Shown here: positions 9,313-43,900 of the stretch, piece after piece
Position numbering within the stretch: the stretch's first letter is position 1
Layout of the letters: each line of letters starts with the position of its first letter
Assembly (NCBI GenBank): GCA_963675755.2
Contig: CAXXMD010000003.1
Location: 992,001 to 1,056,000, forward strand
DNA from: a bacterium
Lineage (GTDB): Bacteria; Zhuqueibacterota; Zhuqueibacteria; Residuimicrobiales; Krinioviventaceae
DNA length: 64,000 nucleotides
Direction: 5' to 3'
Program-made: the position numbers and the translations under genes
Notes under the pieces: generated by a model
What the model saw: only the letters and a program-made list of their open reading frames with translations
Database searches by the model: none
What the model was told of the DNA's origin: nothing

Positions 9313-11847
9313 TTATTGATGGAAAAAAGTATTCAACTCTGATAAAATCTGTTCCCGCGATGCAAAAACATTTTTGCACTCTGGCAACGATCTTAGAAAG
9401 CGTTTACCATAGCTTTTATTAATAACACGATTGTCAAAGATAATTACACATCCCCTGTCTGTTTTTCGTCTGATCAGACGTCCGAATCCTTGTTTAAATT
9501 TCAACACGGCAAGTGGTACCGCATATTCCATAAACGGATTCCCGCCATCTTTTTCAATGGCCTCATATCTTGCTTCTATTATGGGCTCACTGGGTACCTG
9601 GAACGGCAGCTTGGTGATGATTACCGATTCCAGCGCGTCTCCCTCTACATCCACACCTTCCCAAAAACTGTCTGTACCAAACAATACCGATGTTTTTTCC
9701 CGCTTGAACTGGTTCAAAAGATCATGACGGTTCATACTGCCCTGTTTTAATACACGAATACCATGCTCGGCTAAAGGTCCTTCGAGCTGTCTGAATATCA
9801 TGTTCAACAGCCCGAATGAAGTAAACAGCACAAAAGCCCGTCCTTCAGAGACCAACAGTGCATCCAAAACAGACTTGGACAGTTCAGACGCAAAATTTTG
9901 ACTACGTGGGTCCGGCATATCTTTGGGCACCGCCATGATGACCTGTTCCTTATAATTAAACGGAGCAGGCAATTGCGCGCAAATGTTTCGTTTTTCCTCT
10001 ACCAGCGTCAATCCCAATCGTTCACGAATGAAATCAAACTTGTTATCGCTGGTTAGCGTTGCGGATGTCATAATTATGGTTTCAAAAGTATCAAAAACTG
10101 CTTCTTTCATTACCTGGTCGATATGCAGAGGTGAAACCTGAAAATGCAAAATTGACCGGTTGCGATAGGCCGGCTTTGCCTCAATCCATCGGATATCTTC
10201 TTCGCTCGAATTGAACAGCACTTCGGTTAAAATATCTGCAGCAGCTTCTATACGCTCGGCATTGGCTTCAACTTCAATGAGATTATTTAGCATCTCTTCA
10301 CCGTCAGAACGAACACCGCGCTTGACAGTTTCCGTTAAACGTAACAGTACTGATGACAAAATTTTCAACTGCTGAATAAATTCTTTAAAATGCGCATCTA
10401 ATCCCGTATCATAAATCACCTGATCAACAATATGAGGAAGCAGGCGCAGCTTGATTTCCTTTTCATCCAGAACACCGGTTTTTTGCTCTCGGGTCTGCAA
10501 AACCTGATAGAGCGAGTCCATAAGCTCGTCATTCATTGCAGCGATCTGTTCAATCAGATCAACCAGCTCTCCATCAATGGTCATGATAATTCGCTGCACA
10601 ATGTCGTCCGGTACAGCCGCTTTTTTTGATAATAAACGATGTTTTAATGTATGCAGATGCCCCTTGTAAATCGCTTTTTTACGACGGTGCAAACGGTTCA
10701 ATATACGCACCAAGCCCGCACGGGTAACCCGGCTGCCAAAATAGTGGGTTGCAACATGCTCCAGATGATGGGCTTCATCAAATACAATAGCCTGGTATGG
10801 AGGTAATATAGCAGCGTCGGCAAAGCTGCCGGTTTGCCGGCGTACCGCAAGGTCGGCAAATAACAGATGATGGTTCACCACCAGTATATGCGCTCGAGCG
10901 GCTTTACGACGGGCCTTGTTCACAAAACATTCACGAAAATATTTACACCGGCTGTGCGTACAGGTATCACTTTCAGCGGCAATTTTTTCCCATACTGTTG
11001 CGGAAGGAATGACCGAAAGGTCCGCTTTACTGCCGTCTTGAGATTGCCTTGCCCAATGGATCAGCTCCTGCAGCTCTTCAATCTCATGCTCTTCCGCAAG
11101 GGCTGCAAAGTCAGATTCTACATCATCCGCTTTGCGCAGACAGACATAATTGGAACGTCCTTTAACCAGCACAGCCTCAAATTCAGGGTCCAGTGCCTTT
11201 TGCAGTAACGGGATGTCTTTGTTGATCAATTGCTCTTGCAGATTAATTGTATTGGTAGATACTACAACTCGTGTTTTGTTTCGAACGGCCCAATAAATGG
11301 CAGGTACAAGATACGCCATGGTTTTTCCGGTACCGGTCCCTGCTTCTATCAATGCAATTTTTTTCTCGTTATACCCCGCACAAATAGAACTCAACATATC
11401 AATTTGCTGCTGGCGCTCTTCAAATCCATTAATGTGCCGGGCAATGGGACCTTCTTTTTGTAATAACGCTTCCATCTCTTGCAGATCCAGCAAGACTTTG
11501 TCGCGCTTGGCAAAAGGTTCAACCACTACGTATACATCATCTACATCATTGTTAACGATATAAAAAGCAACGCTGAAAGAATCGAGTCCCGAAGCAATAT
11601 TCAGATCGGGTGATGAGGGTTTGAGCATACCTGAGGGATGATTGTGAATGACAACATCCGCCTCCCGCGCAATTTTTAGGATAGCCGGTACGGCAGATTC
11701 GTTTCCCCGTGCAACAGCGTCTACTTTGTGAACAATCAAATCTTCTTCGGTATACCCTACAAAAAAGACTTCATTGCCGCCAGCTTCGGCAATAGCTTGC
11801 CGCATGGTTTCGATCGCTTCCGGGGATATATATTTTTCTATATTCAA
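9313..11847 (-). CDS. dinG: DinG/YoaA-family SF2 helicase with N-terminal RadC-like JAB/MPN domain
   Basis: EAGTGTGKT, VVSTNTINLQEQL, KGRSNYVC plus SDTC..C..C Fe-S cysteines, DEAH, FWEGVDV, KQGFGRLIR; N-terminus has E...HNHPSG..PS..D. Confidence 0.9.
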   Translation of the reverse strand: MNIEKYISPEAIETMRQAIAEAGGNEVFFVGYTEEDLIVHKVDAVARGNESAVPAILKIAREADVVIHNHPSGMLKPSSPDLNIASGLDSFSVAFYIVNNDVDDVYVVVEPFAKRDKVLLDLQEMEALLQKEGPIARHINGFEERQQQIDMLSSICAGYNEKKIALIEAGTGTGKTMAYLVPAIYWAVRNKTRVVVSTNTINLQEQLINKDIPLLQKALDPEFEAVLVKGRSNYVCLRKADDVESDFAALAEEHEIEELQELIHWARQSQDGSKADLSVIPSATVWEKIAAESDTCTHSRCKYFRECFVNKARRKAARAHILVVNHHLLFADLAVRRQTGSFADAAILPPYQAIVFDEAHHLEHVATHYFGSRVTRAGLVRILNRLHRRKKAIYKGHLHTLKHRLLSKKAAVPDDIVQRIIMTIDGELVDLIEQIAAMNDELMDSLYQVLQTREQKTGVLDEKEIKLRLLPHIVDQVIYDTGLDAHFKEFIQQLKILSSVLLRLTETVKRGVRSDGEEMLNNLIEVEANAERIEAAADILTEVLFNSSEEDIRWIEAKPAYRNRSILHFQVSPLHIDQVMKEAVFDTFETIIMTSATLTSDNKFDFIRERLGLTLVEEKRNICAQLPAPFNYKEQVIMAVPKDMPDPRSQNFASELSKSVLDALLVSEGRAFVLFTSFGLLNMIFRQLEGPLAEHGIRVLKQGSMNRHDLLNQFKREKTSVLFGTDSFWEGVDVEGDALESVIITKLPFQVPSEPIIEARYEAIEKDGGNPFMEYAVPLAVLKFKQGFGRLIRRKTDRGCVIIFDNRVINKSYGKRFLRSLPECKNVFASREQILSELNTFFHQ

Positions 11848-17713: not shown

Positions 17714-19279
17714 TTAATGACGGAAATGCCGTGTACCGGTCATAACCATTGCCATATTGTGTTCATCTGCCGCGGTTACAACCTCTTCATCACGAACCGA
17801 TCCACCGGGCTGAATTACTGCTACTGCACCAGCTTCTGCCGCAGCATCCACTCCATCGCGGAACGGAAAGTACGCATCCGAGATCAGTACCGAATTATCA
17901 AGCGAAAGACCTGCGTCATGGGCTTTTTGAACTGCAAATTTTGATGAATCAACACGTGACATTTGTCCGGCGCCTATACCCAGCACTCTGGATTCATTCA
18001 CAAAAATTACCGCGTTACTTTTGACCCATTTACAGATTTTCCAGCCAAACTCCATAGCCAGCCATTCAGAGTCGGTAGGTTGACGTTTTGTAGCCACCTT
18101 GAATTGAGATTTATCATCAAATCCCAGATCCAGATTCTGCATCAGATAACCACCGGATACCGATCTCAAATCATTACCCTTGAACACAGGATTATCCTGG
18201 GGCCATTCAATTAAACGAATGTTTTTCTTTTTGGTCAATATTTCAAATGCTTTTTCAGAAAAAGAGGGGGCTACAATTACTTCTAAAAAGACTTTGGACA
18301 TTTTTTCAGCCATCTCTTCATTGATTTCACGGTTGGCCGCAACAATACCACCATACGCGGAAACCGGATCTGTCTCATTTGCCATTTCATACGCTTTGGC
18401 AATATCTTCATCCATTGCCGCGCCACAAGGATTATTGTGCTTTAATATTACAACACCAGGGCGATCAAATTCCTGTGACAATCCAATTGCAGCATTCAGA
18501 TCCAGAATATTATTAAAGCTGAGTTCTTTACCATGGAGCTTGTTGGCAGCAACAATACCATAAGGTTCAAGTGTTGCGTCAGCATAATATGCGGCATTTT
18601 GATGGGGATTTTCACCATATCTTAATCCCTGGACTTTTTTCAATTTTAAATTTATTGTATCAGGCATTTCTGCTTCTTCTGTGCCTTTGGCAAGATATGC
18701 TGAAATAGCAGTGTCATATTCAGCTGTACGTTGGAAAGCGGCGAGTGACAGGGCTTTGCGGGTTTCCAAAGTAAGGCTGCCATTTCCTGTTTCCAGTTCA
18801 TTCATAACCGTTTCATATTGTGAAGCATCGGTCAATACAGCAACGCCAGGGAAATTCTTGGCTGCTGCACGAATCATACAGGGGCCGCCTATATCAATAT
18901 TTTCAAGAGCGGTATCAATTGTTACATCGGGCTGAGCTACTGTCTTTTCAAAAGGATACAGGTTCACAACTACCATATCAATAGGGGTAATGTCATGCGC
19001 TTTAATTTCTTCCATCTGTTCGGGTTTACTACGCTTGGCAAGAATGCCGCCATGCACACGGGGATGAAGGGTTTTTACGCGTCCTCCCAATATTTCAGGG
19101 AATCCGGTAACATCTGATACAGAAGTGACGGCTATGCCGCTTTCAGTTAAATGCTTTGCTGTTCCACCAGTCGATAAAATTTCCACACCCATTTCAACCA
19201 ATCTTTTTGCAAAATCAACCAGTCCGGTCTTGTCATAAACACTAATTAATGCCCGTTTTATATTAACGTCTGCTGACAC
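17714..19279 (-). CDS. purH: Bifunctional AICAR transformylase/IMP cyclohydrolase
   Basis: [48 protein letters not shown]. Confidence 0.98.
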
Positions 19280-21005: not shown

Positions 21006-22289
21006 TTATCTCAAATACATCTGTAATTCGTACATGGATTGAGGATAATAGAATCGATAATCGCCAAAGCCAGTCTTGTCTACAAATTCAAACCTGCGGT
21101 TCAATCTGTAATAATTCCAGATCTCCCAGGGACGCATATCGCTTGGGTATGGATCACGTGCAATATCATCCGGCGGACCCAGCAAAACATACAGCATACC
21201 CCGATCTGTTCTCCAGCCCTCGCGCTGCATTACGGAAAAATAACGGTTTGCAAATTCAATACGCCCATAATGCGCATCCATTGCCTCATTCACTTCTGTT
21301 CCCGGAGTTGGATCGTGACGTTTCCAAAACTTTTTAAACTCTTCCATCTTTTCATCATCCGGGGCTTTTTTCAACAACTTCCACTCACCAGGAGTTGCAA
21401 TATACTCGATCTGACGAATTGCCATATCCAGGTTTTGTGCGGTTCCGGGTAAACCTTCCATCCGGATAAAGAAATTTTTCTCTTCTTTTGCTTTTTTCCC
21501 GCCGGCTTTTACTTCAAGCCTGAACTCATATCCATCCGGGGGTAAAGAATCTATTGGCAATTCTATTGAGGCCAGCGTACGGCTGCCAGTCAAATCAATT
21601 GAATACTCGTCTTTCAATTCCAACTTGGCATTTATCGCATCAATCTCGTATTTTATTTCAGCAGTGGCAGCATCTGTCTGATTATAAATCTCAAAAAAAG
21701 CAAAAGCGGGTGGATTCAATCCTTTAGCTACATTGGTAACCGTTGGAGAGATGCTTTTAATGCCCGCGGAATCAATCTCAATATCTTTGAGATATGCAAT
21801 ATCAGACAACATCACTTTATCTTTTGTAAACTCTTTTAATTTGAGCTTAAATTTTATCGCATAGCTCTTTTCAGATTCAAGATCCTGAACAGAAACTGCA
21901 GCCATATATTCATCAGGTTCCAGATCAAACTGGGCATGTGTAGAGCTGTACATATTCAGCGAATTGGTCTCATCAAATCGTTCTACAAGCAACTCTTCTT
22001 TCCAAATCTTCCCATCAACCTGAAATTCATCATCATCATAAATGACCATTGTCACTTCATACTTAGCTTCAAATCCACTGTCTTTTTTGATAAATTGCAA
22101 ATCATCATACTTGACTTCTACATAGACATTTATCCTGCTCAATTCAGGGTTATCCGGAACCGCAACATTCACAACATCTACATTATAAGGCATCTCAATC
22201 CTGGCAGTTGTACGTGTCATATTAGGTTGAGCATATATTAAAGACAGAGAAAATAACACAATTACAGATAGTCTCTTCATTACTTTCAT
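21006..22289 (-). CDS. GWxTD domain-containing exported protein
   Basis: Signal peptide; FWKRHDPTPGT.VNE...RIEFAN..F...GWRTDRGMLY..LGPPD. Confidence 0.9.
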   Translation of the reverse strand: MKVMKRLSVIVLFSLSLIYAQPNMTRTTARIEMPYNVDVVNVAVPDNPELSRINVYVEVKYDDLQFIKKDSGFEAKYEVTMVIYDDDEFQVDGKIWKEELLVERFDETNSLNMYSSTHAQFDLEPDEYMAAVSVQDLESEKSYAIKFKLKLKEFTKDKVMLSDIAYLKDIEIDSAGIKSISPTVTNVAKGLNPPAFAFFEIYNQTDAATAEIKYEIDAINAKLELKDEYSIDLTGSRTLASIELPIDSLPPDGYEFRLEVKAGGKKAKEEKNFFIRMEGLPGTAQNLDMAIRQIEYIATPGEWKLLKKAPDDEKMEEFKKFWKRHDPTPGTEVNEAMDAHYGRIEFANRYFSVMQREGWRTDRGMLYVLLGPPDDIARDPYPSDMRPWEIWNYYRLNRRFEFVDKTGFGDYRFYYPQSMYELQMYLR

Positions 22290-22355: not shown

Positions 22356-23645
22356 TCATTCCGACAACTTGGCATGCAAATCATAAATATCGGCGTTTGT
22401 AATTTTTACATTCACAATATCACCAATGTTAGCTGATACTGGCAAAGGTATTAATACAGAGTTGTCTATTTCAGGTGCGTCCCACTGTGTTCTGCCGATC
22501 GCTGCATTGATCTCTGTATCAATTTCATCGATGATTACCGGAATCTTTTTGCCAATCAGCTCCTTATTCTTTAAATACGTTATCTCTGCCTGAAGTTCCA
22601 TAATTTCGTTTTTGCGTTGTTCTTTTACATCCGCAGGTATATCATCCGGCAATTTATATGCACGTGTACCTTCTTCATGCGAATAGGTAAATGCACCAAG
22701 TCGTTCAAACCTAAATTCTTGCACAAAATCCAGCAATTCCAGATAATTATCTTCCGTTTCACCAGGATACCCGGTAATTACCGTAGTACGTAACATCAAT
22801 TCGGGTATCTCTTTACGCATTTGACGAATCAGAGTCTCAATTTGTTTACGTGTCACGTTCCGGCCCATAGCTTTTAAAATGGGGTCGGATATATGCTGAA
22901 CGGGTAAATCGATATACTTTACTACTTTATCCAGTTCTGCTATTGTGTGGATAAATGAATCCTGCCAATGTGCGGGATGCGTATACAATAGCCTGATCCA
23001 TTCAAGGCCATCAAGAGCGTTCAGCTCTCGGAGCAATGCGTCTAATCCTTTTGATTGATCGAGATCTCTGCCATACATGGTTGTGTCTTGCGCAACCAGC
23101 ATGATCTCACGAACTCCTGCCGAAACCAGGTTTTGCGCTTCATTCATTATACTATCGTATGGTCTGCTCACAAAATCGCCCTTAATCAGAGGAATTGCGC
23201 AATAACTGCAGCGATTGTTACAACCTTCGGCTATTTTTAAATATGCAAAATGAGAAGGCGTTATACGTAACCTTTCCAACTGTTCAACATAGGGCAGACT
23301 CAGGCTTTTATTGAGATTTCTAAGTGTTGTGGCAATCTCGGTTGTATCAAAATACTCGTCAACCTGGGGAATCTCTTTGCGGAGTTCATCTTTGTAACGC
23401 TGAGGCAAACATCCTGATACAAACACTTTGAATTGGGGATTATCTTTTTTTTGCTCAACGGCTTCCAGAATTTTATCAATAGATTCCTGTTTGGCGTCAT
23501 CAATAAATGCACAGGTATTGATAATTACTGCGTCTGCCTGCTCAACCAGATCGACAATCTCCACCCCTTCGCCTATTCCACCCAGAATAAATTCCAGATC
23601 GATCTCGTTCTTGGGACACCCCAAACTTATATATGATAGTTTCAC
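22356..23645 (-). CDS. rimO: Ribosomal protein S12 methylthiotransferase
   Basis: SLGCPKN, NTCAFI, GCLPQRY, AEGCNNRCSYCAIP, C-terminal TRAM with DAPEID. Confidence 0.95.
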   Translation of the reverse strand: MKLSYISLGCPKNEIDLEFILGGIGEGVEIVDLVEQADAVIINTCAFIDDAKQESIDKILEAVEQKKDNPQFKVFVSGCLPQRYKDELRKEIPQVDEYFDTTEIATTLRNLNKSLSLPYVEQLERLRITPSHFAYLKIAEGCNNRCSYCAIPLIKGDFVSRPYDSIMNEAQNLVSAGVREIMLVAQDTTMYGRDLDQSKGLDALLRELNALDGLEWIRLLYTHPAHWQDSFIHTIAELDKVVKYIDLPVQHISDPILKAMGRNVTRKQIETLIRQMRKEIPELMLRTTVITGYPGETEDNYLELLDFVQEFRFERLGAFTYSHEEGTRAYKLPDDIPADVKEQRKNEIMELQAEITYLKNKELIGKKIPVIIDEIDTEINAAIGRTQWDAPEIDNSVLIPLPVSANIGDIVNVKITNADIYDLHAKLSE

Positions 23646-24553
23646 TGAAACAATGCCTCTACAAAAAGGTCAGCATCAAATTCCTGCAGATCGTCTATCT
23701 GCTCTCCTAAACCAATATAACGGACCGGTATACCCAGTTCCTTAACAATTGAAAATACAATTCCGCCTTTGGCGGTTCCATCCAGTTTAGTCAGTACTAT
23801 ACCCGTAATATTAACAGATTCTGCAAATTTCTTGGCCTGCACCAGCCCATTCTGTCCGGTGGTAGCATCCATAACCATTAACACTTGATGAGGAACATTT
23901 GGATTTTGCCTTTGAATAACCCGATGGATCTTGTCCAGCTCGGCCATCAGGTTCACTTTGGTATGCAGCCTGCCAGCGGTATCAATAATCAATACATCCA
24001 TATCTTTGGCAACAGCTGAATTATATGCATCGTACGCAACAGACGCCGGATCAGCACCTGTTTGGGGTTGAATGACTTCAGAAGCGGTTCGCTCAGCCCA
24101 AACACACAGTTGCTCAATTGCAGCCGCTCTGAACGTATCTGCAGCTGCCAGCATTACTTTTTTGTTCTGTTGTTTTAGAATATTGGCAAGTTTACCTATA
24201 GTCGTTGTTTTTCCGGTACCATTTACGCCAATAACACTGATCACATGTGGTCGCTGGCTCATATCAATCGATTGTTCCGGAAGATCCTTGAATACCTGGG
24301 CAAGTTCTCTTTTTAAAAGATTGATTACATCATCAGAGGATTTTATCGGTTCCCGTTTGCTTTTTTCTTCAAGATTTTCAATAATCTTTTCAGAGGTTTC
24401 AACACCTACATCACTCAAAATCAACAATTCTTCAAGCTCTTCCAGCACATCGCGGTCAATTTTTTTGCCCAGTGTTACAACATTTTGAATATTGTCTACA
24501 AAACCGGCCTTTGTCTTGGCAAGGCCTTTTTTTAATTTATCTGCTAAACCCAA
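23642..24553 (-). CDS. ftsY: Signal recognition particle receptor
   Basis: GVNGTGKTTTIGKLA, DTFRAAA, DTAGRL, TKLDGTAKGG. Confidence 0.97.
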   Translation of the reverse strand: MGLADKLKKGLAKTKAGFVDNIQNVVTLGKKIDRDVLEELEELLILSDVGVETSEKIIENLEEKSKREPIKSSDDVINLLKRELAQVFKDLPEQSIDMSQRPHVISVIGVNGTGKTTTIGKLANILKQQNKKVMLAAADTFRAAAIEQLCVWAERTASEVIQPQTGADPASVAYDAYNSAVAKDMDVLIIDTAGRLHTKVNLMAELDKIHRVIQRQNPNVPHQVLMVMDATTGQNGLVQAKKFAESVNITGIVLTKLDGTAKGGIVFSIVKELGIPVRYIGLGEQIDDLQEFDADLFVEALFQ

Positions 24554-24564
24554 TTCTCATTTCC

Positions 24565-25176
24565 TTACTTGCTCTTGTAAATATTTTCAATTCTTTCTTT
24601 CAGCTTTACAGATTTTCTGATAATGGTTTCCATATGATTAAAAAAGTAGATTATTAATGAAAAAGGTATCAGAAAAATAGAAATCCACAAAGCAATCTCT
24701 TTTGCAATGGGGACCTGAAGTGTGTATAAAATGATAACCAATGCCAGAAATGTTGCTGTAAATTTACCCGGCATGTTAGATTCCATAATGGTTCTTTTGC
24801 GCTTGATAACCAGCATACTGCCCAGAAGGATAAAAAAATCACGTCCAATAACAATGGCAACAAACCAGGCAGGCAATCCCTTTTTCATGGCAAGCAGCAG
24901 CATAACCGAGGCTACACTCAGCTTGTCAATCAACGGGTCAAGTAATCGACCCAGTTGAGACGTCATGTTCAATTTCCGGGCAAAAAATCCATCCAGAAAA
25001 TCGGTAAAACTGGCCAGCAGCATAAACAGCAGGGCCAACCGATCTCCCGTCGTGGTGCCCATCCATAAAAAATACAAAACAAAGGGTAAAAAACCCAATC
25101 GGCTCAAAGTTAAAATATTCGGTAGTCCAAAAACATTCTTGTCTTCCGCAAGCAGTTCCCTAATACTGGATTTCAT
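24565..25176 (-). CDS. CDP-alcohol phosphatidyltransferase (PgsA-like)
   Basis: LPNILTLSR; signature TDFLDGFFAR...G..LDPLIDK. Confidence 0.9.
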   Translation of the reverse strand: MKSSIRELLAEDKNVFGLPNILTLSRLGFLPFVLYFLWMGTTTGDRLALLFMLLASFTDFLDGFFARKLNMTSQLGRLLDPLIDKLSVASVMLLLAMKKGLPAWFVAIVIGRDFFILLGSMLVIKRKRTIMESNMPGKFTATFLALVIILYTLQVPIAKEIALWISIFLIPFSLIIYFFNHMETIIRKSVKLKERIENIYKSK

Positions 25177-25185
25177 AAAACCCTC

Positions 25186-26358
25186 TTAGGTAAAGACTTT
25201 GATTGCCTCGAGAATTAATGATGGCTTTTTGACCATTGCTGACTTGAACAGACCTAAAATACTTCTTTTTTCCATAGGTAAATCCAGAATTACTTTTGCA
25301 GTATCATCAAGGTCTTTGTCACTCATATTATACACAAATTCTTTTAATTTATAAAATATTTTATTCTTTTTTCCTTCAGAATTATGCCATAATTTTTGAT
25401 ATTCGCTGAGTCGCTTTGCTGTAAAATTCTTTTCCTGTACCGCCTTACCGGCAACAATACCCGCAAATTTACCGGCCACCATACCATTCACAATACCACC
25501 TCCCGAAACCGGATTCACCTGTCTTGCGGCATCACCAACGAGCATTAATCCATCAGCATAAATTTCGTCCTGTTCAAGGCTACAAGGATCTCCGCCAACC
25601 ACAGTTGTAATAATTGCTGCGTTTGGAAAATACTCTTTCATAAACTCTTCAAGATACTGGTACACACTCTTGTCTTTTGAAGCCTCACCTGAAATACCCA
25701 AACCTACATTTGCCAATCCATTCCCTTTGGGGAACACCCACAAATACCCTTTGGGGGCGATTGAGCTTGAAAAATAAAAATGACAATAGTTCTCATCCAG
25801 ATCAATATTTTGAGCTGTATACTGTGCGCAGGTTTCCATATCTTTCATGGGAACACGGGTTTTTAATCCGGCCCAACGGCCAACGCGTGACTCTACACCA
25901 TCCGCACCAATTACAATATCAGCGAATATTTCATATTCGTTGCCAAGATGTTTTACTTTAACGCCAGCAACTTTTTCATCTTTGATAATAAGATCGTAAA
26001 CATAAGCTTTTGTTATTATTTCAGCACCTTCTTTGGCGGCAAGTTCTGCAAGTCCCTGATCAAACTTTTTGCGATTCAACACATATCCAACTTCTTTTGA
26101 ATCAACTTTAACTTCCATGCCTGACGGCGAGTACAGCATAACACCGGTAATTTTTTGATCAATCCATTGGGGTTCCAGCTTGTCCAATACGGTTAATACG
26201 CCTTTTTCACCCACACCTTCCGCGCAGCGAACAGGAACACCTACTTCACGGTCTTTTTCAAGCATCAATACAGACGCTCCTGATTGAGCAGCAAAACGAG
26301 CTGCCGTAGAACCCGCAGGGCCGGCGCCAACGACTATAACATCATATTTATTCTTCAT
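25186..26358 (-). CDS. Geranylgeranyl reductase, archaeal digeranylgeranylglycerophospholipid-reductase type
   Basis: Start reassigned to ATG 26358 (GGAGG SD). GAGPAG FAD motif, PVRCAEG, RKKFD, GADGVES.VGRWAG, APKGYLWVFPKG (PxxYxWxFP), GDAARQVNPVSGGGI. Confidence 0.88.
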   Translation of the reverse strand: MKNKYDVIVVGAGPAGSTAARFAAQSGASVLMLEKDREVGVPVRCAEGVGEKGVLTVLDKLEPQWIDQKITGVMLYSPSGMEVKVDSKEVGYVLNRKKFDQGLAELAAKEGAEIITKAYVYDLIIKDEKVAGVKVKHLGNEYEIFADIVIGADGVESRVGRWAGLKTRVPMKDMETCAQYTAQNIDLDENYCHFYFSSSIAPKGYLWVFPKGNGLANVGLGISGEASKDKSVYQYLEEFMKEYFPNAAIITTVVGGDPCSLEQDEIYADGLMLVGDAARQVNPVSGGGIVNGMVAGKFAGIVAGKAVQEKNFTAKRLSEYQKLWHNSEGKKNKIFYKLKEFVYNMSDKDLDDTAKVILDLPMEKRSILGLFKSAMVKKPSLILEAIKVFT

Positions 26359-26530
26359 CTTTAGCCTCCAATGCGCGTATCGGACAGATATATACACAAT
26401 TCATACAAACCGTACATTTATCTGTAATTTCCAGATCATTTTCTGACAATTCAATTGCATCATGAGGGCAAACACCCACACAGGTGCCGCAAAAATCGCA
26501 TAATTCACGATTATAAATAATTTTTTTCAT
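26348..26530 (-). CDS. 2x[4Fe-4S] ferredoxin
   Basis: CDFCGTCVGVCP and CTVCMNCVYICP; overlaps the GGR start. Confidence 0.92.
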   Translation of the reverse strand: MKKIIYNRELCDFCGTCVGVCPHDAIELSENDLEITDKCTVCMNCVYICPIRALEAKDEE

Positions 26531-26540
26531 AAGTTATCCC

Positions 26541-27500
26541 TTATTTCATGCTCAAACTTGGGTAAACAATATTAAATCTCTTTTTATAATACCATTTTGA
26601 AAAATAGAATACAAATACAATTAATACCAGATACAGTGGGAAACGATAACAAATAACCAACGAAAGAAACAATGCAGCGAATTTATTGGTAGTGAGTATA
26701 TGTTTGACTGACTGGTTCAGGGTTGTAAAAATAAAAAATGGCAAAATCAACAGCGTGGGAATTAAAACAATAATATCGCGAGTCAATAGTCCAAAGACAA
26801 TGGCAATAACATCAGAAATCAATCCACCCCATATTGCTGCCTTGGCACCATATTTTACCGCAACCGTTATCTTTTCAGAGGCTTTATCACCCTCTATGTC
26901 GGGTATAGTGGTGTAAAAATAGACTGCCATCATGCCCAGAATATAGGGAGCACCGTAATATATCATATTCCATTGTGGCTGACCTTGTATCATCCATCCA
27001 AAAGAAAACACAATGAATCCACCAAAAAAATTGGGCAAAAATCCACCAATGGGTTTGTTTTTCATGACCAATGGTTTGCAGCTATACATCCAACCCATTA
27101 TAATATAGGCCAATATCATTACAACCGCCAATGGCCAATAAACAAACGCCAAAATCCCGATTGGCAAAACAGTCAACAAGATCGTTTCAATATAGGCGTT
27201 TACCAGTTTGATATCACCATTTGCAATGAGAAACAACTTTTTATTTAACCGGTCAGTTTCTACATCTTCAATTTGGTTTACAAGAAAAACCGCTCCCATC
27301 AAAAGCGTAAATAATCCCAGATATACAAAAACGGAAATATCAAAATCCGCAATCACAACCAGCCTTGCTGGTTGTGATGCAGATAATATATCGAAACGAT
27401 TCTGTGCCCATACACCGGCAAGCGCAATTGTCCAAACCGGAAAAAACAATGTCGGACGTAATACAAAAATATAGTCCAGAAATTTCAAACCCTTATTCAT
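26541..27500 (-). CDS. UbiA-superfamily membrane prenyltransferase (DGGGP synthase/ChlG/HPT-like motifs)
   Basis: Start likely ATG 27500; about 9 TM; NQIEDVETDRLNK, YSCKPLVMK, IPDIEGDK...TVAVKYG aspartate-rich motifs. Confidence 0.85.
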   Translation of the reverse strand: MNKGLKFLDYIFVLRPTLFFPVWTIALAGVWAQNRFDILSASQPARLVVIADFDISVFVYLGLFTLLMGAVFLVNQIEDVETDRLNKKLFLIANGDIKLVNAYIETILLTVLPIGILAFVYWPLAVVMILAYIIMGWMYSCKPLVMKNKPIGGFLPNFFGGFIVFSFGWMIQGQPQWNMIYYGAPYILGMMAVYFYTTIPDIEGDKASEKITVAVKYGAKAAIWGGLISDVIAIVFGLLTRDIIVLIPTLLILPFFIFTTLNQSVKHILTTNKFAALFLSLVICYRFPLYLVLIVFVFYFSKWYYKKRFNIVYPSLSMK

Positions 27501-27549: not shown

Positions 27550-28977
27550 TCAGGAATTTTTTGACTGCTTTACAGATTCATGTTGAAACTTGCCTATTTT
27601 TTCCTCAATAGGAATGGGATAATCTCCCGTAAAGCAAGCAGTACAAAATCCATTTTCAGGAGAAACTGAACTCATCAATCCTTCTTTTGACAAATAGTGA
27701 ATACTGTCGCATCCCAGGTATTCACCAATTTCCTGAACGGATCTGTTATTAGCAATCAACTCTTCTTTACTTGGAAAATCCATACCATAAAAACAGGGTG
27801 AAGTTATAGGGGGTGAACTGACCCGAATATGCACTTCTTTGGCACCAGCCTGACGAATCAATTTCACCAACTGACGAAGTGTTGTTCCACGGACAATAGA
27901 GTCTTCAACCACAACAACGCGCCTGCCCTGTAAAATACCGCGGACTGCATTGAATTTTATACGAACGCTGAAATCTCGCATATTTTGTTTAGGGTGAATA
28001 AAGGTCCTGCCTATATAATGATTACGGATGAGGCCCAGCTCAAATTTAATATTTGATCTGCGAGAAAATCCCACAGCAGCGGTATTGCTCGAGTCCGGAA
28101 CAGAAATTACAATATCCGCTTCTGTTGGCAGCTCTAACGCCAAATTTTTTCCGAGTTTTCTACGGACCTTGTCCACATTTTCATTAAAGATCATACTATC
28201 GGGTCTGGAAAAATAGATAAATTCGAATATACAAGAATGTTTTTTCTTGCCCATATTGACTTTATGAGAAACCAACCCTTCGGCACTAATTTCTATCAAT
28301 TCACCGGGTTCGACATCTCGAATATATTCAGCTCTCACAATATCCAAAGCACAGGTTTCTGAAACAACAAACCAGGCATTACCTTTTTTGCCAATACACA
28401 AGGGCCTGACACCATGAGGATCGCGGGTAGCAAAGATACGATCTTTGGTCAACATGATCAATGAAAATGCTCCGTGGATCTGGTTCAATGCATCAATAAC
28501 CTTGGCGGAAAACTTTCTTTTTTTTGATCGAGCAATCAAGTGTGCAACAACTTCAGTATCTGTAGTGGTCTGAAAAATAGATCCTTCTTGTTCAAGACTT
28601 TCTCTCAAACCACCTGAATTTGTAAAATTCCCATTATGGCTTATTGCCAAAGGACCATCTTTACCGGTAAGCAGCAAAGGTTGGGCATTGATTAAATGGG
28701 TTGAACCTGTTGTGGAATATCGATTGTGCCCAATAGCAATATGCCCTTGAAGGTAATCAAAAATTTTCGGATCAGAATACACATCTGAAACCAATCCCTG
28801 GGCCACATGACGTCTTACTTGTTCACCGTCACTGCTTACAATACCCGAGCTCTCTTGTCCTCTATGCTGTAATGCATATAATCCCAGGTAACTGTAATGT
28901 GCCGCGTTTTTATCTCCAAAAACTCCAACAATACCACAGTTGGATTCTGGCTTGTCTAATTCTCTTTGTTGATTCAT
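27550..28977 (-). CDS. purF: Amidophosphoribosyltransferase
   Basis: Propeptide followed by CGIVG, LQHRGQESSG, GHNRYST, CIFEFIYFSRPDS, VEDSIVRGTT, CFYGMD. Confidence 0.97.
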   Translation of the reverse strand: MNQQRELDKPESNCGIVGVFGDKNAAHYSYLGLYALQHRGQESSGIVSSDGEQVRRHVAQGLVSDVYSDPKIFDYLQGHIAIGHNRYSTTGSTHLINAQPLLLTGKDGPLAISHNGNFTNSGGLRESLEQEGSIFQTTTDTEVVAHLIARSKKRKFSAKVIDALNQIHGAFSLIMLTKDRIFATRDPHGVRPLCIGKKGNAWFVVSETCALDIVRAEYIRDVEPGELIEISAEGLVSHKVNMGKKKHSCIFEFIYFSRPDSMIFNENVDKVRRKLGKNLALELPTEADIVISVPDSSNTAAVGFSRRSNIKFELGLIRNHYIGRTFIHPKQNMRDFSVRIKFNAVRGILQGRRVVVVEDSIVRGTTLRQLVKLIRQAGAKEVHIRVSSPPITSPCFYGMDFPSKEELIANNRSVQEIGEYLGCDSIHYLSKEGLMSSVSPENGFCTACFTGDYPIPIEEKIGKFQHESVKQSKNS

Positions 28978-28983
28978 ATGGTT

Positions 28984-29343
28984 TTACTCTACATTGTTTA
29001 ATATAATAAGGCCAATTGTGATACCGGCACAATCTGCAACTAAATCCTTGTAACTAAAATATCGCTTCCTGATTGTGCCGTCATATATTTCTTTAAAAAG
29101 TCCTAATGAAAATGAGAATCCTACTGCCACTCTTTTAGAGGAATGGGTAGAAAATGACAACTCTTCTTTTGCAACATAATTTCCCAAAGCCACCAGATAG
29201 GCACTGGTAATAAAATGGTGGGCTTTATCTGAGGCAAACCAACGATCCTGCATCGAGGTTTGCAAAGAATCGGGATTTGTACTCGTTTCGCAATACCCCG
29301 CCGAAACAACAAAAAGCAGAAATATTGCTAAATAACGTGACAT
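28984..29343 (-). CDS. YfiM/DUF2279-like small membrane protein
   Basis: DRWFASDKAHHF...KEIYD...FSYKDLVAD..G. Confidence 0.7.
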   Translation of the reverse strand: MSRYLAIFLLFVVSAGYCETSTNPDSLQTSMQDRWFASDKAHHFITSAYLVALGNYVAKEELSFSTHSSKRVAVGFSFSLGLFKEIYDGTIRKRYFSYKDLVADCAGITIGLIILNNVE

Positions 29344-37998: not shown

Positions 37999-40900
37999 AT
38001 GGAGCGGCAATTGAAATTAAAACATATCGTTGCAATTTTGATCATTTATGCAATTCAACCCTTGTATTCAGCAGCTATCCCACAAGGGGAAAACGCAGAA
38101 CCACCATTTAACGGCGGGGTTGAATATCACAATATAGACAATATAAATACAAATCAGCGTGCTATTTCTTTCAGATCGCTGGACAACGGCCTAAAGGACC
38201 AGCTCTCTGAAAAAGGTATTGCTGTTTCGGGTTCTGACAACTTTAGCCAGATCACAATTCAACTCAATTCAGCTCAAACGCTTGCCGGCAAAATAGATTT
38301 AACGCTTGACCGCAATTTATCAATTTCTCCCGACAATCCCCTTCCGGCATATATCTTTGTTAAAGGGAAAACGGGTTACAAGCTTGTTTCTACAGAAACA
38401 TTCAATCTGGATGGCTCTCTCTCTTCAATTTTTGGCGGTCAGTATACGGATGAAATAACAGTACTTGTTCCTCAAATGGAATCTGATGCACCGTCTCAAA
38501 TTATTGCATCTGCTAATGTGGGCGAGATCATTAATGATGACGCGGTTAAAATCATGTTGCTGGGTGACTCTATTACCTGGGGTGAATACGATAACGCAGA
38601 AGAAGGGCTTCGAAAAAGATTATATGAACGATTAACCAACGCGGGCTACAACTTTGATTTTGTAGGAAGCTGGGGTGAAGCACCTTATGAAGGACATTTC
38701 AGATTTAGTCAAAAAATAGACGATTTTTACCCTCCAGATTTGCTTGGCGGTGACCATGGAAATATGGATGTTACCAATCCCATGAACAATCACAGACCCA
38801 ATATTGTGGCTTTTCATCTGGGGACAAACGACCTTAACAGTCAATACAAAGATGTTGGTCCGTACGAAGAAAACGGAGAGATTATAAATACACAAAGTGG
38901 TGAAGTTGCCGTCTTGATTGATTATCTGTTAAAATGGCATAATGGTGAATTTGGTGAAAACCTGGATTATATCATTGTCAGCCTGATCATACCCATGGAA
39001 GATACTGCTCGCAGCGGAACACTTGAAAAATGTATCGAATTCAATAAAGAAGTAGCCCGCCTTGCCAGAGATTACCGTAACGGTGTTCTAACCGGGCAGC
39101 CTGAACCGGTATACATTTGCGACCATTTCTCTCGTTTACAGGAAAATCCATATATATGGACTAATGAATATTTTGATCCCATGTATGATATGATGCACCC
39201 CACCAAAGAGGGATTGGACACCATGGGAGATACCTATTTCGATGTATTTAACTATATTCTATCCGGTGAGACAAAGTGGTTCCGGGATATCACATGGTAC
39301 GCTGATGTTGCAGGCTTTGCCGACAAGTATCACAGTTACAAAGGTGTATCTCTTGTAGATATCAACCAGGACGGCTATGACGATATTTATGTAACCCGTA
39401 CAGCCAAAGGCGATGCTGACCCCCGTGATGCATTCTATCTCAGCAATCCGCAATTGCCCTATACAGAAAGCGCATTTGACTATCACATTGAAGATGAAGA
39501 AAAAAGTAACAGTTCCGTATTTGTAGACATTGACAATGATGGCGATTTTGACATGTTCAATGGCAGTACGACTGATAGTCCCAACCATTTATACCTGAAC
39601 CAGGACAATCAGGATTTTGAAGATATTAGCACCCTGGCGGGAATACTAAACCAGATCAAAACGACCACATCAACATTGGCATTTGACGCGGAAAATGACG
39701 GTGATATGGACATTCTCGCCATCAATTCCGAGGCATTGAACGAATATTATGTAAATGATGGCAATGGCAGCTTTACTTCAACCGCCAGCAACCTGCGCGA
39801 TGTAGTTGAAGCAGGCAAATACAGCATCTCTGCTTCAGCAGCGGATTTTGATAATGATGGCGATGTTGACATCTTTTTATCAAAACGCGAAACCAACAAC
39901 AAACTTTGGCTAAATGACGGAGCCGGTAACTTTTCTGACGTTGCCGAATTTGCCGGCGTTGAAGGTAATTACGTCAGCCTGAACCACAACGGTGCAAGCT
40001 GGGCAGATCTGGATAACGATGCGGATCTGGACCTGATTTTGGGTGTCAGCCATACCAGCAGCACACCTGATCCCTATTTGCAGGTATATGAAAACCAGGG
40101 TGACGGCACTTTTGATAATATTTCCAATTCTTTAGCCATCCCCATGGATGGGCTTGCTCCCATTATTGGCGATTTTAACAATGATGGATGGGAAGACATT
40201 CTCATTACCAGTGTGGCAGACTATTCGGGACTCTATCTGAACCAGGGCAACTGGACCTTTGCCAAAGAAAACAACAGTGGTACCGAGGTTTATGCCGGTG
40301 ATATGCGTGGCGGTGCACCATTTGATTATGATCTGGATGGCGATTTGGATCTGATTATTACCCGCGCAGACGTTTTTAATGTCATGATGCAAAACAATCT
40401 CAGCAATGGTTACAATTGGTTAAGAGTAAATGCTTATGGACCGGATGGCAATATTGGCGGATACGGTACAAAAATTTGGGTTTACGAATCCGGGCATGTG
40501 GATGATGCAGATTACCTGTTGAGCTATCGTGAAATCACCTCAGGTGCCGGCTATTTCTCGCAATACTCTCCCACACAGCACATTGGTATGGAATTACACA
40601 GCCAATGCGACCTGCTTGCAAGATTCACTGACGGCACCATGGTTGTAATGCGAAATGTTGCGGCTAACCAGACCATTACCATTCGCCCCGAAATCCCTCA
40701 AAATACCGGTACCGATCCCGCTCTATTGGCAGAATACAGCGGCAACAATCAGGAAAAAATTGTAGGACAAACGCTTGACAATCCCATCGTTGTCAAAGTT
40801 ACAGATGATGAAGGCAGACCGGTTGAAGGATCAAGTGTGGCATTTCAAGTTATTGAAGGCGATGCAACCCTGTTTATTCCGGATCTTACCACAGATGCCA

Positions 40901-43900
40901 TTTCAGTTGAAACAGAAACCGGAAATCTTTCCGGAAATATGCAATGGTTTTACGACTTGACCGCATCTGGCAATGGTTTTGTAGCCGTTCCCTCATATCT
41001 AGGCGGTTCAGGCAGTGCCGAACTTCAAGTTGAAACAGCTGAAGCGGACCAGTTCTCGGTATGGGTGCGTTTTGCGAACGCACAGGCATCAGATCAGGTA
41101 ACCGTGGCAATTGACGATTACCAGGCAAAAACCCTGACGCTCTCTTCCCAGGAAGGTTGGCAATGGGTGCAAATACAGGAAAACAGCGTTGCGTATTTAT
41201 ACAATCTGGAACAGGGTTCACATTCCATTACCCTGGATATCAATAGCGGCAGACCCCACATTGATAAATTATTATTCACCACCGATGTCAATTATGTGCC
41301 TACCGGTGCTGAAGAAGGAGAAAATGAATCTCCTAATCTTACCGATCGTGAAGGTTTAGCTCGTCGTTTTGTTGAACTGGGACAAACAGCCGGTGAAATT
41401 ATTGTTGAAGCATCTCTATCCTATAACGGATCACCAGTTGATGGCAGTCCTGTTCAATTCAGCTTGTCCGCGCTTCCCGGTACCCCGGTTACCATTGAAA
41501 AGACATCTGGTGATGCACAGGCGGGTGATATAAACGTTCCTCTTGATGAGCCTTTTGTCGTAACCATCAAAGACGCATTCGGCAACCCCATCCCTGATTT
41601 TCAGGTCGTATTTTTAGTACTTTCAGGCGGTGGTGTAATAGACAACAACGCGGTGAATACTGATGAGCTGGGTCAGGCAAGCGCAACCTTGACTCCTGGT
41701 AGCGCAAGCGGATTGCAGCAGGTACAGGCTATTGCGGAAGGTGTTCCCGGCTCTCCAGTAACATTTACAGCAGCTATTCGGGGTGTTGCCAGTGATATGG
41801 AATATGTTTCCGGTAACAATCAAACCGGCAAAGTATTGGAATTTCTGGCTGATCCCATTCAGGTCAAAGTGCTGGAAGAAAATGGCGGCCCCGCAATTGG
41901 TTACCAGGTGAATTTTGCGGTATTGAGTGATACCGGCGGCGTTGTAGATTCTACCACATATGCTGCTATTCAACAAGGTGCTACAGTCCAGGCAGACTCT
42001 TCAACACAGATCCTTACCAATGTAAACGGTATAGCAAAGGGTTACTGGCTATTGGGTAAAACCGCGGGTACAACAAGCATGCAAGTCAACGCAGGAGAGA
42101 TAAACGGATCTCCTATAACAGTTAATGCAACTGCAACCGCAGGAAATCCCGCAGTAATATTGCAGATATCCGGTAACGGTCAAACTGCAGCAGTAAACCA
42201 TTCTTTACCTGAACCTCTGGTTGTACGTATTAATGACAAATATGGTAATCCCATATCCGGTCATTCGGTTGTCTTTACTGCTGAAAATGGAGGTGGTTTT
42301 GACGGCAGCACCCAAATTGTAGCTCAAACCAGCAACCTGGGTGACGCAAAAGCCGAATTTTCAACCGGCGAAACCGCAGGAACAGATATTTACGAAATTA
42401 ACGCCAGCGCTTCATACAATGGCAGTGAAATACCCGGATCACCGGTAACCTTTCTGGCCTCTGCCACATCGGGAAGTGCTGCTAATGCATATAAAATTTC
42501 AGGAGACGCACAGACTGATACCGTTGGGCATGTACTAAAACAGCCGTTCAGGGTAAGAGTCACTGACAGTTATAACAACCCGGTTGAAGGATTTGAAGTT
42601 AGATTCTGGGTTGAAAACGGTAACGGTTCTTTTAACGGACAGGATATTGATACTCAGGTTACCAATGCAAACGGATATGCTTCTATCGATTTCACTTTGG
42701 ATGAAAAAGCGGGACAAAATCAGGTCCAGGCTGTCTTTGCCGGCTTGTCTCCGGAAGTTATTGCATTTTCCGCAACCGGTGTGCACGATGTTCCTCAAAA
42801 ACTACTTTATGTATCGGGTGATGATCAAAGCGGAGTTCGGGGAACCCGGTTAAATCAGCCTTTCCAGATCAGAATTACAGATGTGTTTGAAAATCCCGTT
42901 CAAGACCATCCCGTAAGCTATGAAGTTACCAGCGAATTGGGTGAAATAGATGGATTAAGCTCGTTCAACACCAGTACAGATGAATTGGGCCTAGCGCGTG
43001 CATATCTCACCCTGGGTGAAGACCTGGGTGATTCAAACCATGTGGTTACTGTGTCCAGTGAATATATTGGCCAGGAATTGGATGGCAGCCCTTATACATT
43101 TTATGCATCTGTTAAACGTGGCAATCCCGCTCGAATCATACCTATTACCAGTACAAGCGGTTTGATTGGTGCACCAGGGCAGGTTCTGCCAGACACTATT
43201 TTTGTCAAAGTGGTTGATACAGACAACCTGTCAATACCCAATTTTACGATAAAATATTCTATTCTCACAGGCAACGGCCGGTTCGAAGCAAATGATAAAG
43301 ACACCTTGTCCGTACAAACTGATTCCAGAGGTATAGCGTATGCGGTTTGGCGTCTGGGTGACTATCAGGATGCACAACAAATCTCAGTTTCTGCAATTTA
43401 TGAATCTGAACATCTGGAAAACTCGCCTCTCAGCTTTAGCGCTTATGCAGTTTCTTCCGGTGCTGAAGATCTGGTTTATGAAGCAGGAAACAATCAGACC
43501 GGAATGGTGGGGCAGGCACTGCCTACTCCGCTTGCAGTCAAAATCAAAGATGGACTGGGTTTTCCCGTATCCAACCATCCCGTAACATTTACGGTAAAGG
43601 GTGGATCCGGAACCGTTGGTACAAGATCTGACACTCTGGTCCACACAAATGAGAACGGCATTGCCAGCGTTATCTTTACTCTGGGAAGTGAAATGGGTGA
43701 CAATTTACACACCGTAGAAGCCAGATCTTCCAATAAAGGTACTGCATTAACTGGTTCACCCTATTTATTTACCGCATCAGGTGAAGCAGGTATTACGGAT
43801 GCAGCCCTTTCCACCATGAGCGCTGAATCTCCAATTCCGGCATCCGGTGACGCTTTTTCTTCTGTTCTTGTTAAATTAAAAGATATATATGGAAATGCTC

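Follow-up and report, generated by a model that had tools for sequence, protein, structure and literature searches.

Why should a bacterium keep four genes of apparent isoprenoid lipid metabolism in the middle of a run of housekeeping genes? The question is raised by a 64,000-nucleotide stretch of DNA (the window, G000:C3:992001-1056000) from a bacterium placed in the KSB1 group, whose genome comprises 6.48 Mb in 3 contigs and is 98% complete. Between purF and ftsY this window carries genes for a UbiA-superfamily prenyltransferase (hereafter UbiAx), a ferredoxin (Fd), a geranylgeranyl reductase (GGR) and a CDP-alcohol phosphatidyltransferase (PgsAx). The answer that we favour, with a probability of roughly 0.55, is that the four genes belong together as a vertically inherited core module within a pathway for archaeal-type isoprenoid glycerophospholipids, in which UbiAx would perform a further prenyl transfer. 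Whether bacteria build membranes of archaeal type matters for the "lipid divide" and for models of how membranes first evolved, and the case that they do so far rests mainly on Cloacimonetes genes expressed in Escherichia coli. The four genes are the following:

26541-27500, minus strand: UbiAx, UbiA-superfamily intramembrane prenyltransferase (PF01040) reaching no curated subfamily, 319 amino acids (aa) from the ATG at 27500
26348-26530, minus strand: Fd, 2x[4Fe-4S] ferredoxin (Fer4 match), 60 aa
25186-26358, minus strand: GGR, geranylgeranyl reductase of the archaeal lipid-reductase type (TIGR02032, PF22578, PDB 3oz2), 390 aa
24565-25176, minus strand: PgsAx, second PgsA-like CDP-alcohol phosphatidyltransferase (PF01066), 203 aa

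In agreement with the first-pass annotation, which had been made from the letters of the window, all four open reading frames (ORFs) are present on the minus strand between purF and ftsY-rimO, co-oriented and separated by 10 nt or less or overlapping (UbiAx-Fd 10 nt, Fd-GGR an overlap of 11 nt, GGR-PgsAx 9 nt); purF lies 49 nt before UbiAx, ftsY follows PgsAx after 11 nt, and ftsY and rimO overlap by 4 nt. The same order was sought in relatives and found to be conserved there. Among 20 loci from the phylum, the purF-UbiAx junction is present in 19, UbiAx-Fd-GGR in 16, PgsAx in 15 and all four genes in 12, with UbiAx-PgsAx without Fd-GGR in three lineages and UbiAx alone in one locus; where Fd-GGR is missing from UbiAx-PgsAx, GGR is encoded elsewhere in the genome (five of the five genomes examined). 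A second set consists of 80 species-level loci from named records, partly from the same genomes, with UbiAx called in 79. Here the next gene after UbiAx is Fd-GGR in 53, PgsAx in 8 and another gene in 6 of the 67 loci with at least 1.8 kb of downstream sequence, PgsAx lies within three genes in 42 of the 65 loci with at least 2.6 kb downstream, and the gene directly upstream is purF in 54 and a DUF2279-like gene in 8 of the 69 loci with at least 1.6 kb upstream. Since the arrangement recurs with all four genes in 12 of 20 sampled phylum genomes and in most of the 80 species-level loci, it is not a matter of chance.

The main reason for placing all four genes in one isoprenoid glycerophospholipid pathway is that lipid genes stay with UbiAx when its housekeeping neighbours change. 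The partners kept across changed surroundings are Fd-GGR, PgsAx, the CDP-diglyceride synthase CdsA, a relative of the archaeal digeranylgeranylglyceryl phosphate (DGGGP) synthase, referred to below as DGGGPS-like, and geranylgeranylglyceryl phosphate (GGGP) synthase (GGGPS). In four of four loci labelled Marinimicrobia, a DUF2279-like gene, UbiAx, Fd and GGR follow each other in this order, and no match to purF, ftsY or rimO was found in the stretches fetched. A Poribacteria chromosome (L146) has the run OmpH, LpxD, deacetylase, UbiAx, DGGGPS-like, SpoU, Fd, GGR, GGGPS; in an Ignavibacteria-labelled metagenome-assembled genome (MAG; L157) the gene immediately preceding UbiAx is CdsA; in a Stahlbacteria MAG GGR stands two genes ahead of UbiAx, and a Bacteroidetes-labelled MAG shows the order purF, UbiAx, PgsAx, ftsY. 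Five of five such genomes possess a GGGPS over the cut-off together with a DGGGPS-like gene. In the phylum of the Ignavibacteria-labelled MAG (121 genomes), UbiAx was detected in 111 genomes and the GGGPS-family gene PcrB in 109, with both in 104 and neither in 5, but as both genes are near-universal and the genomes related, no statistical conclusion follows from this co-occurrence. Note also that in L146 the GGR beside GGGPS is split over two frames (10028-11133, plus strand), either as a frameshifted gene or through an assembly error.

Within the phylum itself, the occurrence of the pathway genes was tallied over 167 genomes, 105 of them of high quality (the counts for UbiAx, GGGPS and DGGGPS-like take in G158 and G162, which are flagged as unpublished). 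UbiAx was found in 157 genomes (101 of the 105 high-quality ones), GGGPS over the cut-off in 153 (with a match at E ≤ 0.001 in 103 of the 105), and DGGGPS-like at E ≤ 1e-30 in 153 (103 of the 105); of 61 genomes sampled for GGR, 57 have it. When run on control genomes, the DGGGPS-like model gave matches only in the 4 archaea. The misses hardly overlap, and only G053, a 70% complete genome, is without UbiAx, GGGPS and DGGGPS-like together. Each of these four genes is thus near-universal in the phylum, which sustains the earlier proposal that the lineage carries archaeal-type lipid genes among its core genes.

The first-pass annotation had called the pathway incomplete, having seen no GGGPS, glycerol-1-phosphate (G1P) dehydrogenase or CarS in the window. 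The last two were not found in the rest of the genome either, but GGGPS and a DGGGPS-like enzyme are encoded outside the window, and with them the genome holds more of the pathway than can be seen in this stretch. The GGGPS gene lies at C3:915307-916059, about 77 kb before the window, and its product is assigned to GGGPS by TIGR01769 (220.1 bits, cut-off 161.55) and NF003198 (291.3 bits, cut-off 247); the objection that the genome might be devoid of GGGPS thereby falls away. Five UbiA-family proteins were found in the genome, namely heme O synthase, MenA, a protein resembling decaprenylphosphoryl-5-phosphoribose (DPPR) synthase, UbiAx and the DGGGPS-like protein (C3:1988905-1989750). The last of these aligns along its whole length with the DGGGP synthase of Methanocaldococcus jannaschii (MjDGGGPS, PDB 6m31; 7.9e-47, 163.6 bits) and scores 221.3 bits on NF009523 and 200.4 on NF009521, both under the cut-offs (269 and 296). 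There is one CdsA and there are two polyprenyl synthases, and no match to CarS (PF01864) was found among 15 candidates in this 98% complete genome.

If the module acts as we propose, GGGPS and the DGGGPS-like enzyme would make the two geranylgeranyl ether bonds, as their homology suggests, and the operon GGR, whose enzyme type is likewise assigned by homology, would saturate the geranylgeranyl chains with its own ferredoxin. The bacterial CdsA would activate the isoprenoid lipid, since CarS was not found; PgsAx would add a glycerophosphate head group to the CDP-activated isoprenoid lipid, the canonical PgsA presumably serving acyl lipids, and UbiAx would prenylate a lipid acceptor other than GGGP. 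That archaeal-type isoprenoid lipids are made by the host at all is what we infer from this gene content.

The reductase of the module is closest to an archaeal enzyme. Its frame (25186-26358) is read so that residue 4 aligns with residue 4 of PDB 3oz2, the digeranylgeranylglycerophospholipid reductase of Thermoplasma acidophilum, although a GTG at 26397 is also open. The protein belongs to the GGR family by TIGR02032 (235.8 bits, cut-off 158.8), contains the GGR_cat domain (PF22578, 103.2 bits, cut-off 27), and matches 3oz2 with an E value of 1.7e-78 (267 bits, residues 4-384), the match to the Sulfolobus GGR being far weaker (about 1e-30). On the models for rival functions it obtains 77.5 bits (MenJ) and 133.7 bits (BchP/ChlP), against 312 on a lipid-reductase model, and it is the sole GGR-family match over the cut-off in the genome. 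The motifs PVRCAEG, GRWAG, PKGYLWVFP and VNPVSGGGI, on which the first reading had relied, are indeed in the translation and align with PVRCGEG, GRWAG, PAGYIWVFP and IDPITGGGI of T. acidophilum, so that both the conserved cysteine and the Y-x-W-x-FP stretch of 3oz2 are aligned. The cysteine of PVRC(A/G)EG is known as essential in the reductase, and is described as such in the available text of a review (PMC10821996).

The ferredoxin gene (Fer4, 52.5 bits, over two stretches) overlaps the start of GGR, and its product is the likely electron donor of the reductase. The same review reports that the GGR of Methanosarcina acetivorans requires the ferredoxin from its own locus, and that in Archaeoglobus fulgidus, whose GGR falls into one group with the Thermoplasma enzyme, a 4Fe-4S protein gene lies upstream of the reductase gene (PMC10821996). 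The assignment of the operon GGR to the archaeal lipid-reductase type is therefore upheld, 3oz2 being its closest match and a ferredoxin standing beside it, as in Methanosarcina and Archaeoglobus. In three loci of one genus (L178, L179 and L180) the GGR frame opens 66 codons before the match to the GGR of the window, approximately the length of the ferredoxin, and a ferredoxin-GGR fusion is possible there.

What, then, is the role of UbiAx? Its open frame extends to 27530, while the homologues start at the ATG at 27500, and with 75.5 bits on PF01040 (gathering cut-off 34.2) it belongs to the UbiA superfamily. None of the NCBIfam equivalog cut-offs is reached: the best score, 46.8 bits, is on the DGGGPS model NF009523 (cut-off 269), and lower scores include weak matches to homogentisate phytyltransferase (HPT, 42.5 bits) and chlorophyll synthases (30 bits), with cut-offs of 226 to 313, to the second DGGGPS model, NF009521 (31.0 bits, cut-off 296), and to the best MenA model (28.7 bits, cut-off 277), so that UbiAx falls outside both the DGGGPS and the quinone prenyltransferase families as these models define them. 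The catalytic motifs N75-x3-D79-x3-D83, Y139...K147 and D201-x2-G-D205, mapped onto the MjDGGGPS motifs given in the available part of a review, are invariant or nearly so in 47 homologues (N75, D79, D83, Y139, D201, G204 and D205 at 90% conservation or more; K147 invariant in a 10-sequence alignment). The Mg2+/diphosphate-binding Asp-rich motifs 1 and 3 and the Y...K motif 2 are therefore all present, and as every catalytic motif of the superfamily is retained, UbiAx is probably an active Mg2+-dependent prenyltransferase that uses a C20 diphosphate. A crude Kyte-Doolittle scan gives 7 hydrophobic segments, the superfamily having about nine transmembrane helices. Traits of its own are an invariant Q76, a conserved C-terminal KWYYKKRF...YP stretch and, after motif 1, K-L-F-L-I-A where DGGGPS has K-P-x-R-P.

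A profile built from the 47 homologues was compared with PDB chains. The nearest chain is 4tq3, the UbiA homologue of A. fulgidus (AfUbiA; 83 bits, 1.7e-22, profile positions 13-263), followed by DGGGPS 6m31 (65 bits, 5.6e-17) and chlorophyll synthase (63 bits, 2.6e-16); further down are DPPR synthase and the 4-hydroxybenzoate enzyme 4od4 (6.8e-7), and among the PDB chains there was no match to MenA or UBIAD1. The distance from the 4-hydroxybenzoate enzyme, together with a separate MenA in the genome that exceeds its own cut-off (304.6 bits against 264), speaks against the prenylated quinone that had first been retained as an alternative product.

The original idea that the operon UbiA protein is itself the DGGGP synthase could not be maintained. 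The closest relative of the solved DGGGPS in this genome is the other UbiA protein, at G000:C3:1988905-1989750 (163.6 bits on 6m31; 221 and 200 bits on the two DGGGPS models, against 46.8 and 31 for UbiAx), and the two proteins belong to different clades. In a maximum-likelihood tree of 45 rows, built without archaeal reference sequences (no archaeal DGGGPS, no AfUbiA), the 21 UbiAx rows fall into one clade and 19 of the 21 DGGGPS-like rows into another, with support of 92 and 96 in the Shimodaira-Hasegawa-like approximate likelihood ratio test (SH-aLRT); two of the 45 rows were set aside, namely DG_G166 (wrong ORF, branch length 10) and DG_G170Pori_b (another UbiA paralogue). Both clades contain rows labelled KSB1, Marinimicrobia, Latescibacterota, Stahlbacteria, Poribacteria and Ignavibacteria, and because the clades are separate and each holds the same phyla, UbiAx and the DGGGPS-like enzyme are to be regarded as old paralogues, and UbiAx is not to be taken for the DGGGP synthase of the genome.

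UbiAx might nevertheless be a second DGGGP synthase isozyme that also makes the second ether bond on GGGP, but with another donor (phytyl diphosphate, for instance, or partly reduced geranylgeranyl diphosphate (GGPP) from the adjacent GGR), another chain length or another backbone stereochemistry. This we consider unlikely, although the order of profile neighbours is compatible with it, DGGGPS coming directly after 4tq3 and being followed by a chlorophyll synthase that uses phytyl or geranylgeranyl diphosphate, as are the 99% probability given by hhalign for UbiAx against the DGGGPS-like profile and the direct adjacency of the two genes in the Poribacteria record. The hhalign alignment shows only 21% identity at profile level, however, and two families that have been kept side by side for so long, in separate clades over the same phyla, argue against redundancy. 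Conservation of N75 and Y139 points at first sight towards the isozyme, as they correspond to N62 and Y125 of MjDGGGPS, which the available text of the review places near the glycerol of GGGP, but these residues are conserved superfamily-wide and are thus no sign of GGGP use. UbiA enzymes are also reported to group by acceptor (Hemmi 2004, as related in the review), and as UbiAx forms a clade apart from the DGGGPS-like enzyme, it probably acts on a different lipid acceptor. The further proposal that UbiAx performs a third prenyl-transfer step, giving a lipid class outside the archaeal and bacterial textbook pathways that would be housekeeping across several phyla, is a tentative one that we hold to be doubtful; its products might be, for example, a mixed prenyl/acyl glycerophospholipid, a head group carrying a prenyl chain or an ether lipid built on glycerol-3-phosphate, the backbone used by bacteria.

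The UbiAx family is not small. At E ≤ 0.001 a search of the whole library returned 865 cluster representatives, of which 142 reach E ≤ 1e-30, and the protein atlas gives, as a lead only, similar clusters in Fibrobacterota and Zixibacteria and a mostly Bacteroidota cluster of 3659 members. Frames of 644 to 777 aa in three genomes, which gave the appearance of purF-UbiAx fusions, were rejected as stop-to-stop frames that overlap purF in another frame; of 4115 candidates of at least 560 aa, none reached E ≤ 1e-20, which is weak evidence that UbiAx has no fused or longer forms.

The CDP-alcohol transferase of the operon is less easily told from its acyl-lipid relatives. The CDP-alcohol motif has the form D-x2-DG-x2-AR-x8-G-x3-D-x3-D and is intact in PgsAx, where it reads DFLDGFFARKLNMTSQLGRLLDPLID in the translation. 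PgsAx scores 117.9 bits on PF01066 (CDP-OH_P_transf), 84.3 bits on the model for CDP-alcohol-type cardiolipin synthase, and 103.6 bits on TIGR00560 (PgsA), just under the cut-off of 109.1. It is one of six CDP-alcohol transferases in the genome, among which a canonical PgsA is encoded elsewhere (122.5 bits on the same model). This two-copy pattern recurs in five of five other phylum genomes, with 118 to 145 bits for the canonical copy and 84 to 101 for the second, which adjoins UbiAx in four of the five. In these five genomes GGGPS and the canonical PgsA share a contig and are 6 to 10 kb apart (G139:C8, G123:C32, G036:C69, G154:C87 and G044:C8), a possible second lipid neighbourhood, the corresponding distance in G000 being about 678 kb. 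The sixth CDP-alcohol transferase gene of G000 (L074, G000:C2:913388-913771, minus strand) contains an in-frame TAA, as a broken copy or through an assembly error.

Could the four genes be neighbours merely by inheritance? Adjacency would then reflect an inherited housekeeping gene order without a shared pathway, PgsAx making phosphatidylglycerol or cardiolipin, Fd-GGR saturating menaquinone or a polyprenol and UbiAx an unrelated prenylated product. The surroundings lend themselves to such a view, as the module stands among 12 co-oriented minus-strand genes whose gaps range from -11 to 66 nt, in the order SNF-type transporter, DUF2279/VanZ-like small protein, purF, UbiAx, Fd, GGR, PgsAx, ftsY, rimO, GWxTD protein, ldcA and purN. 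The neighbours are as follows:

28984-29343, minus strand: small protein with weak DUF2279 and VanZ-like matches (sub-cut-off Pfam), upstream of purF
27550-28977, minus strand: purF, upstream neighbour, context only (Pfam GATase_7 and Pribosyltran)
23642-24553, minus strand: ftsY, downstream neighbour, context (SRP54, 261 bits)
22356-23645, minus strand: rimO, downstream neighbour, context (UPF0004, Radical_SAM, TRAM_2)
21006-22289, minus strand: GWxTD-domain protein (Pfam, 65.4 bits), kept downstream of rimO in most phylum loci

Inherited order is the more thinkable in that purF, ftsY, rimO, ldcA and purN also keep their places, that PgsAx stands near PgsA and scores on the cardiolipin synthase model, that the genome makes menaquinone, to judge from its MenA, and that quinone-reducing GGR paralogues are known in archaea according to the available text of the review (PMC10821996). 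We nevertheless judge it decidedly unlikely as the whole explanation. UbiAx-Fd-GGR is intact in all four Marinimicrobia-labelled loci, where purF, ftsY and rimO were not found in the stretches fetched; elsewhere UbiAx adjoins CdsA, or the DGGGPS-like gene with GGR and GGGPS; and the only GGR of the genome over the cut-off prefers the lipid-reductase model to MenJ by 312 bits to 77.5.

Pairs of a GGR with a UbiA enzyme resemble ChlP with ChlG or HPT. That the module makes a phytylated or geranylgeranylated compound with a small head group (tocopherol-, quinone- or tetrapyrrole-like) is nonetheless highly improbable, for in spite of the weak HPT and chlorophyll synthase matches and the third rank of chlorophyll synthase among the PDB chains, all scores of aromatic and chlorophyll type are far below their cut-offs, 4od4 is matched at only 6.8e-7 and MenA and UBIAD1 chains not at all, and the partners kept with UbiAx are PgsAx, CdsA, GGGPS and DGGGPS-like and not aromatic-head genes, homogentisate, tocopherol cyclase and tetrapyrrole genes not having been searched for.

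Several points weigh against the module of an isoprenoid glycerophospholipid pathway as we propose it. The reductase stays below the equivalog cut-offs for lipid reductases (NF041160, 312.3 bits against 780; NF041080, 196.9 against 580; NF041385, 120.8 against 700). A G1P dehydrogenase was not recognised: of the seven Fe-ADH_2 (PF13685) matches present, six were identified on scanning as AroB or iron alcohol dehydrogenases, and the seventh has 25 bits and an internal stop. PgsAx, being near ordinary PgsA and cardiolipin-synthase-like, may simply serve acyl lipids. As a DGGGPS-like enzyme is already present, the known scheme is complete at this point without UbiAx. Of the 121 genomes in the phylum to which the Ignavibacteria-labelled MAG belongs, 7 have UbiAx but no detectable PcrB, and 5 have PcrB but not UbiAx. 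Finally, because purF, ftsY and rimO hold their order as well, the genes may adjoin one another partly through inheritance of that order and not through a shared function.

Some features of the surroundings deserve mention. The product of 28984-29343 remains below the Pfam cut-offs for DUF2279 and VanZ-like (24.8 bits against 28.6 and 24.9 against 30.1); proteins of this type travel with UbiAx across phyla, standing directly upstream of it in all four Marinimicrobia-labelled loci, and the small protein may be part of the module. Between positions 19000 and 31500, a scan with the sigma-70 consensus, which may not fit these bacteria, gave 50 promoter-like sites (34.7 expected), and a terminator scan gave 14 sites (10.1 expected); none of these sites lies clearly between genes. 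No RNA genes were found in the window by Rfam and tRNA scans. On the strand opposite to the operon, positions 37999-46446 (plus strand) hold one ORF of 2815 aa with Big_1, FG-GAP, invasin D3 and MG4 domains and a G+C content of 0.45 to 0.47 (compared with about 0.40), probably a giant surface adhesin-like protein.

What would the module mean? GGGPS, the DGGGPS-like enzyme, GGR with its ferredoxin and a spare PgsA are near-universal phylum-wide, and Fd, GGR and the spare PgsA are placed inside a housekeeping operon; a near-universal set with three of its genes wired into such an operon points to constant use and not to a chance acquisition. Since a further conserved UbiA family is linked to these genes in several phyla, the pathway scheme published for such bacteria probably lacks a part. 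The operon is a compact construct, and it may also be present in cultured relatives from related classes. If such lipids are made in quantity, isoprenoid ether lipids of sediments could not be read as purely archaeal.

The presence of GGGPS, DGGGPS and GGR in bacteria of the Fibrobacteres-Chlorobi-Bacteroidetes (FCB) group is itself already published (PMC7852524; PMC6431249). In the available text of these papers, GGGPS and DGGGPS orthologues are reported from 12 of 12 FCB phyla surveyed, and the DGGGPS tree is noted to have two clades with FCB sequences in both (Coleman et al., 2019, PMC6431249), of which UbiAx may be the smaller clade; and GGGPS and DGGGPS from Cloacimonetes yield archaetidylglycerol in E. 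coli via bacterial CdsA and PgsA, the Cloacimonetes MAGs having Euryarchaeota-like GGRs and no CarS (Villanueva et al., 2021, PMC7852524). That CdsA can stand in for CarS was shown for the E. coli enzymes in work cited there (PMC7852524). The text of the two papers, as far as available, makes no mention of the operon, the ferredoxin partner (ferredoxin appears there in the reference list only), a dedicated PgsA copy or a second UbiA family, and no publication was found on the conserved operon, the bacterial ferredoxin partner, the dedicated PgsA copy or the UbiAx family, although the supplementary DGGGPS trees of both papers may hold UbiAx-type sequences. The word "isoprenoid" is absent from the available text of the Zhuqueibacterota paper (PMC11683472), and that of the preprint 10.1101/2024.06.25.600576 contains none of the terms sought.

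Compared with known systems, the set described here resembles that of the FCB group in combining GGGPS, a DGGGPS relative and a Euryarchaeota-like GGR in the absence of CarS, bacterial CdsA and PgsA being the proposed substitutes (Villanueva et al., 2021, PMC7852524). Differently from the Cloacimonetes MAGs, in which GGGPS and DGGGPS are reported to be co-localised, the two genes lie about 1.07 Mb apart, both outside the operon. Like the T. acidophilum reductase 3oz2, the operon GGR shows full-length similarity to the archaeal enzyme and, like the GGR of M. acetivorans, it has the gene for a small 4Fe-4S protein next to it (PMC10821996); unlike the archaeal GGRs, it comes from a bacterial host and falls below the equivalog cut-offs (312 against 780; 196.9 against 580). 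UbiAx shares with AfUbiA (4tq3; Huang et al., 2014, PMC4106721) an N-terminal helix of R-P-x4-W type and both Asp-rich motifs, but the similarity is only remote, UbiAx having its own KWYYKKRF...YP and, in motif 1, N-Q instead of N-D or N-A; as the available text of PMC4106721 names no natural substrate for AfUbiA, the match transfers no function. With the M. jannaschii DGGGP synthase (6m31), UbiAx has in common the superfamily and the three catalytic motifs, but it reaches 65 bits only as a profile, and the true relative is the DGGGPS-like protein of the genome. Finally, the PcrB pathway of Bacillus subtilis likewise employs a GGGPS-family enzyme in a bacterium for an archaea-type ether lipid, there by forming heptaprenylglyceryl phosphate, which is then dephosphorylated and acetylated by YvoF to give a C35 monoether (PMC9179154). 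That pathway, as described, involves no second prenyl transfer, reductase or CDP-alcohol step, whereas the GGGPS encoded here is of the TIGR01769 GGGP type.

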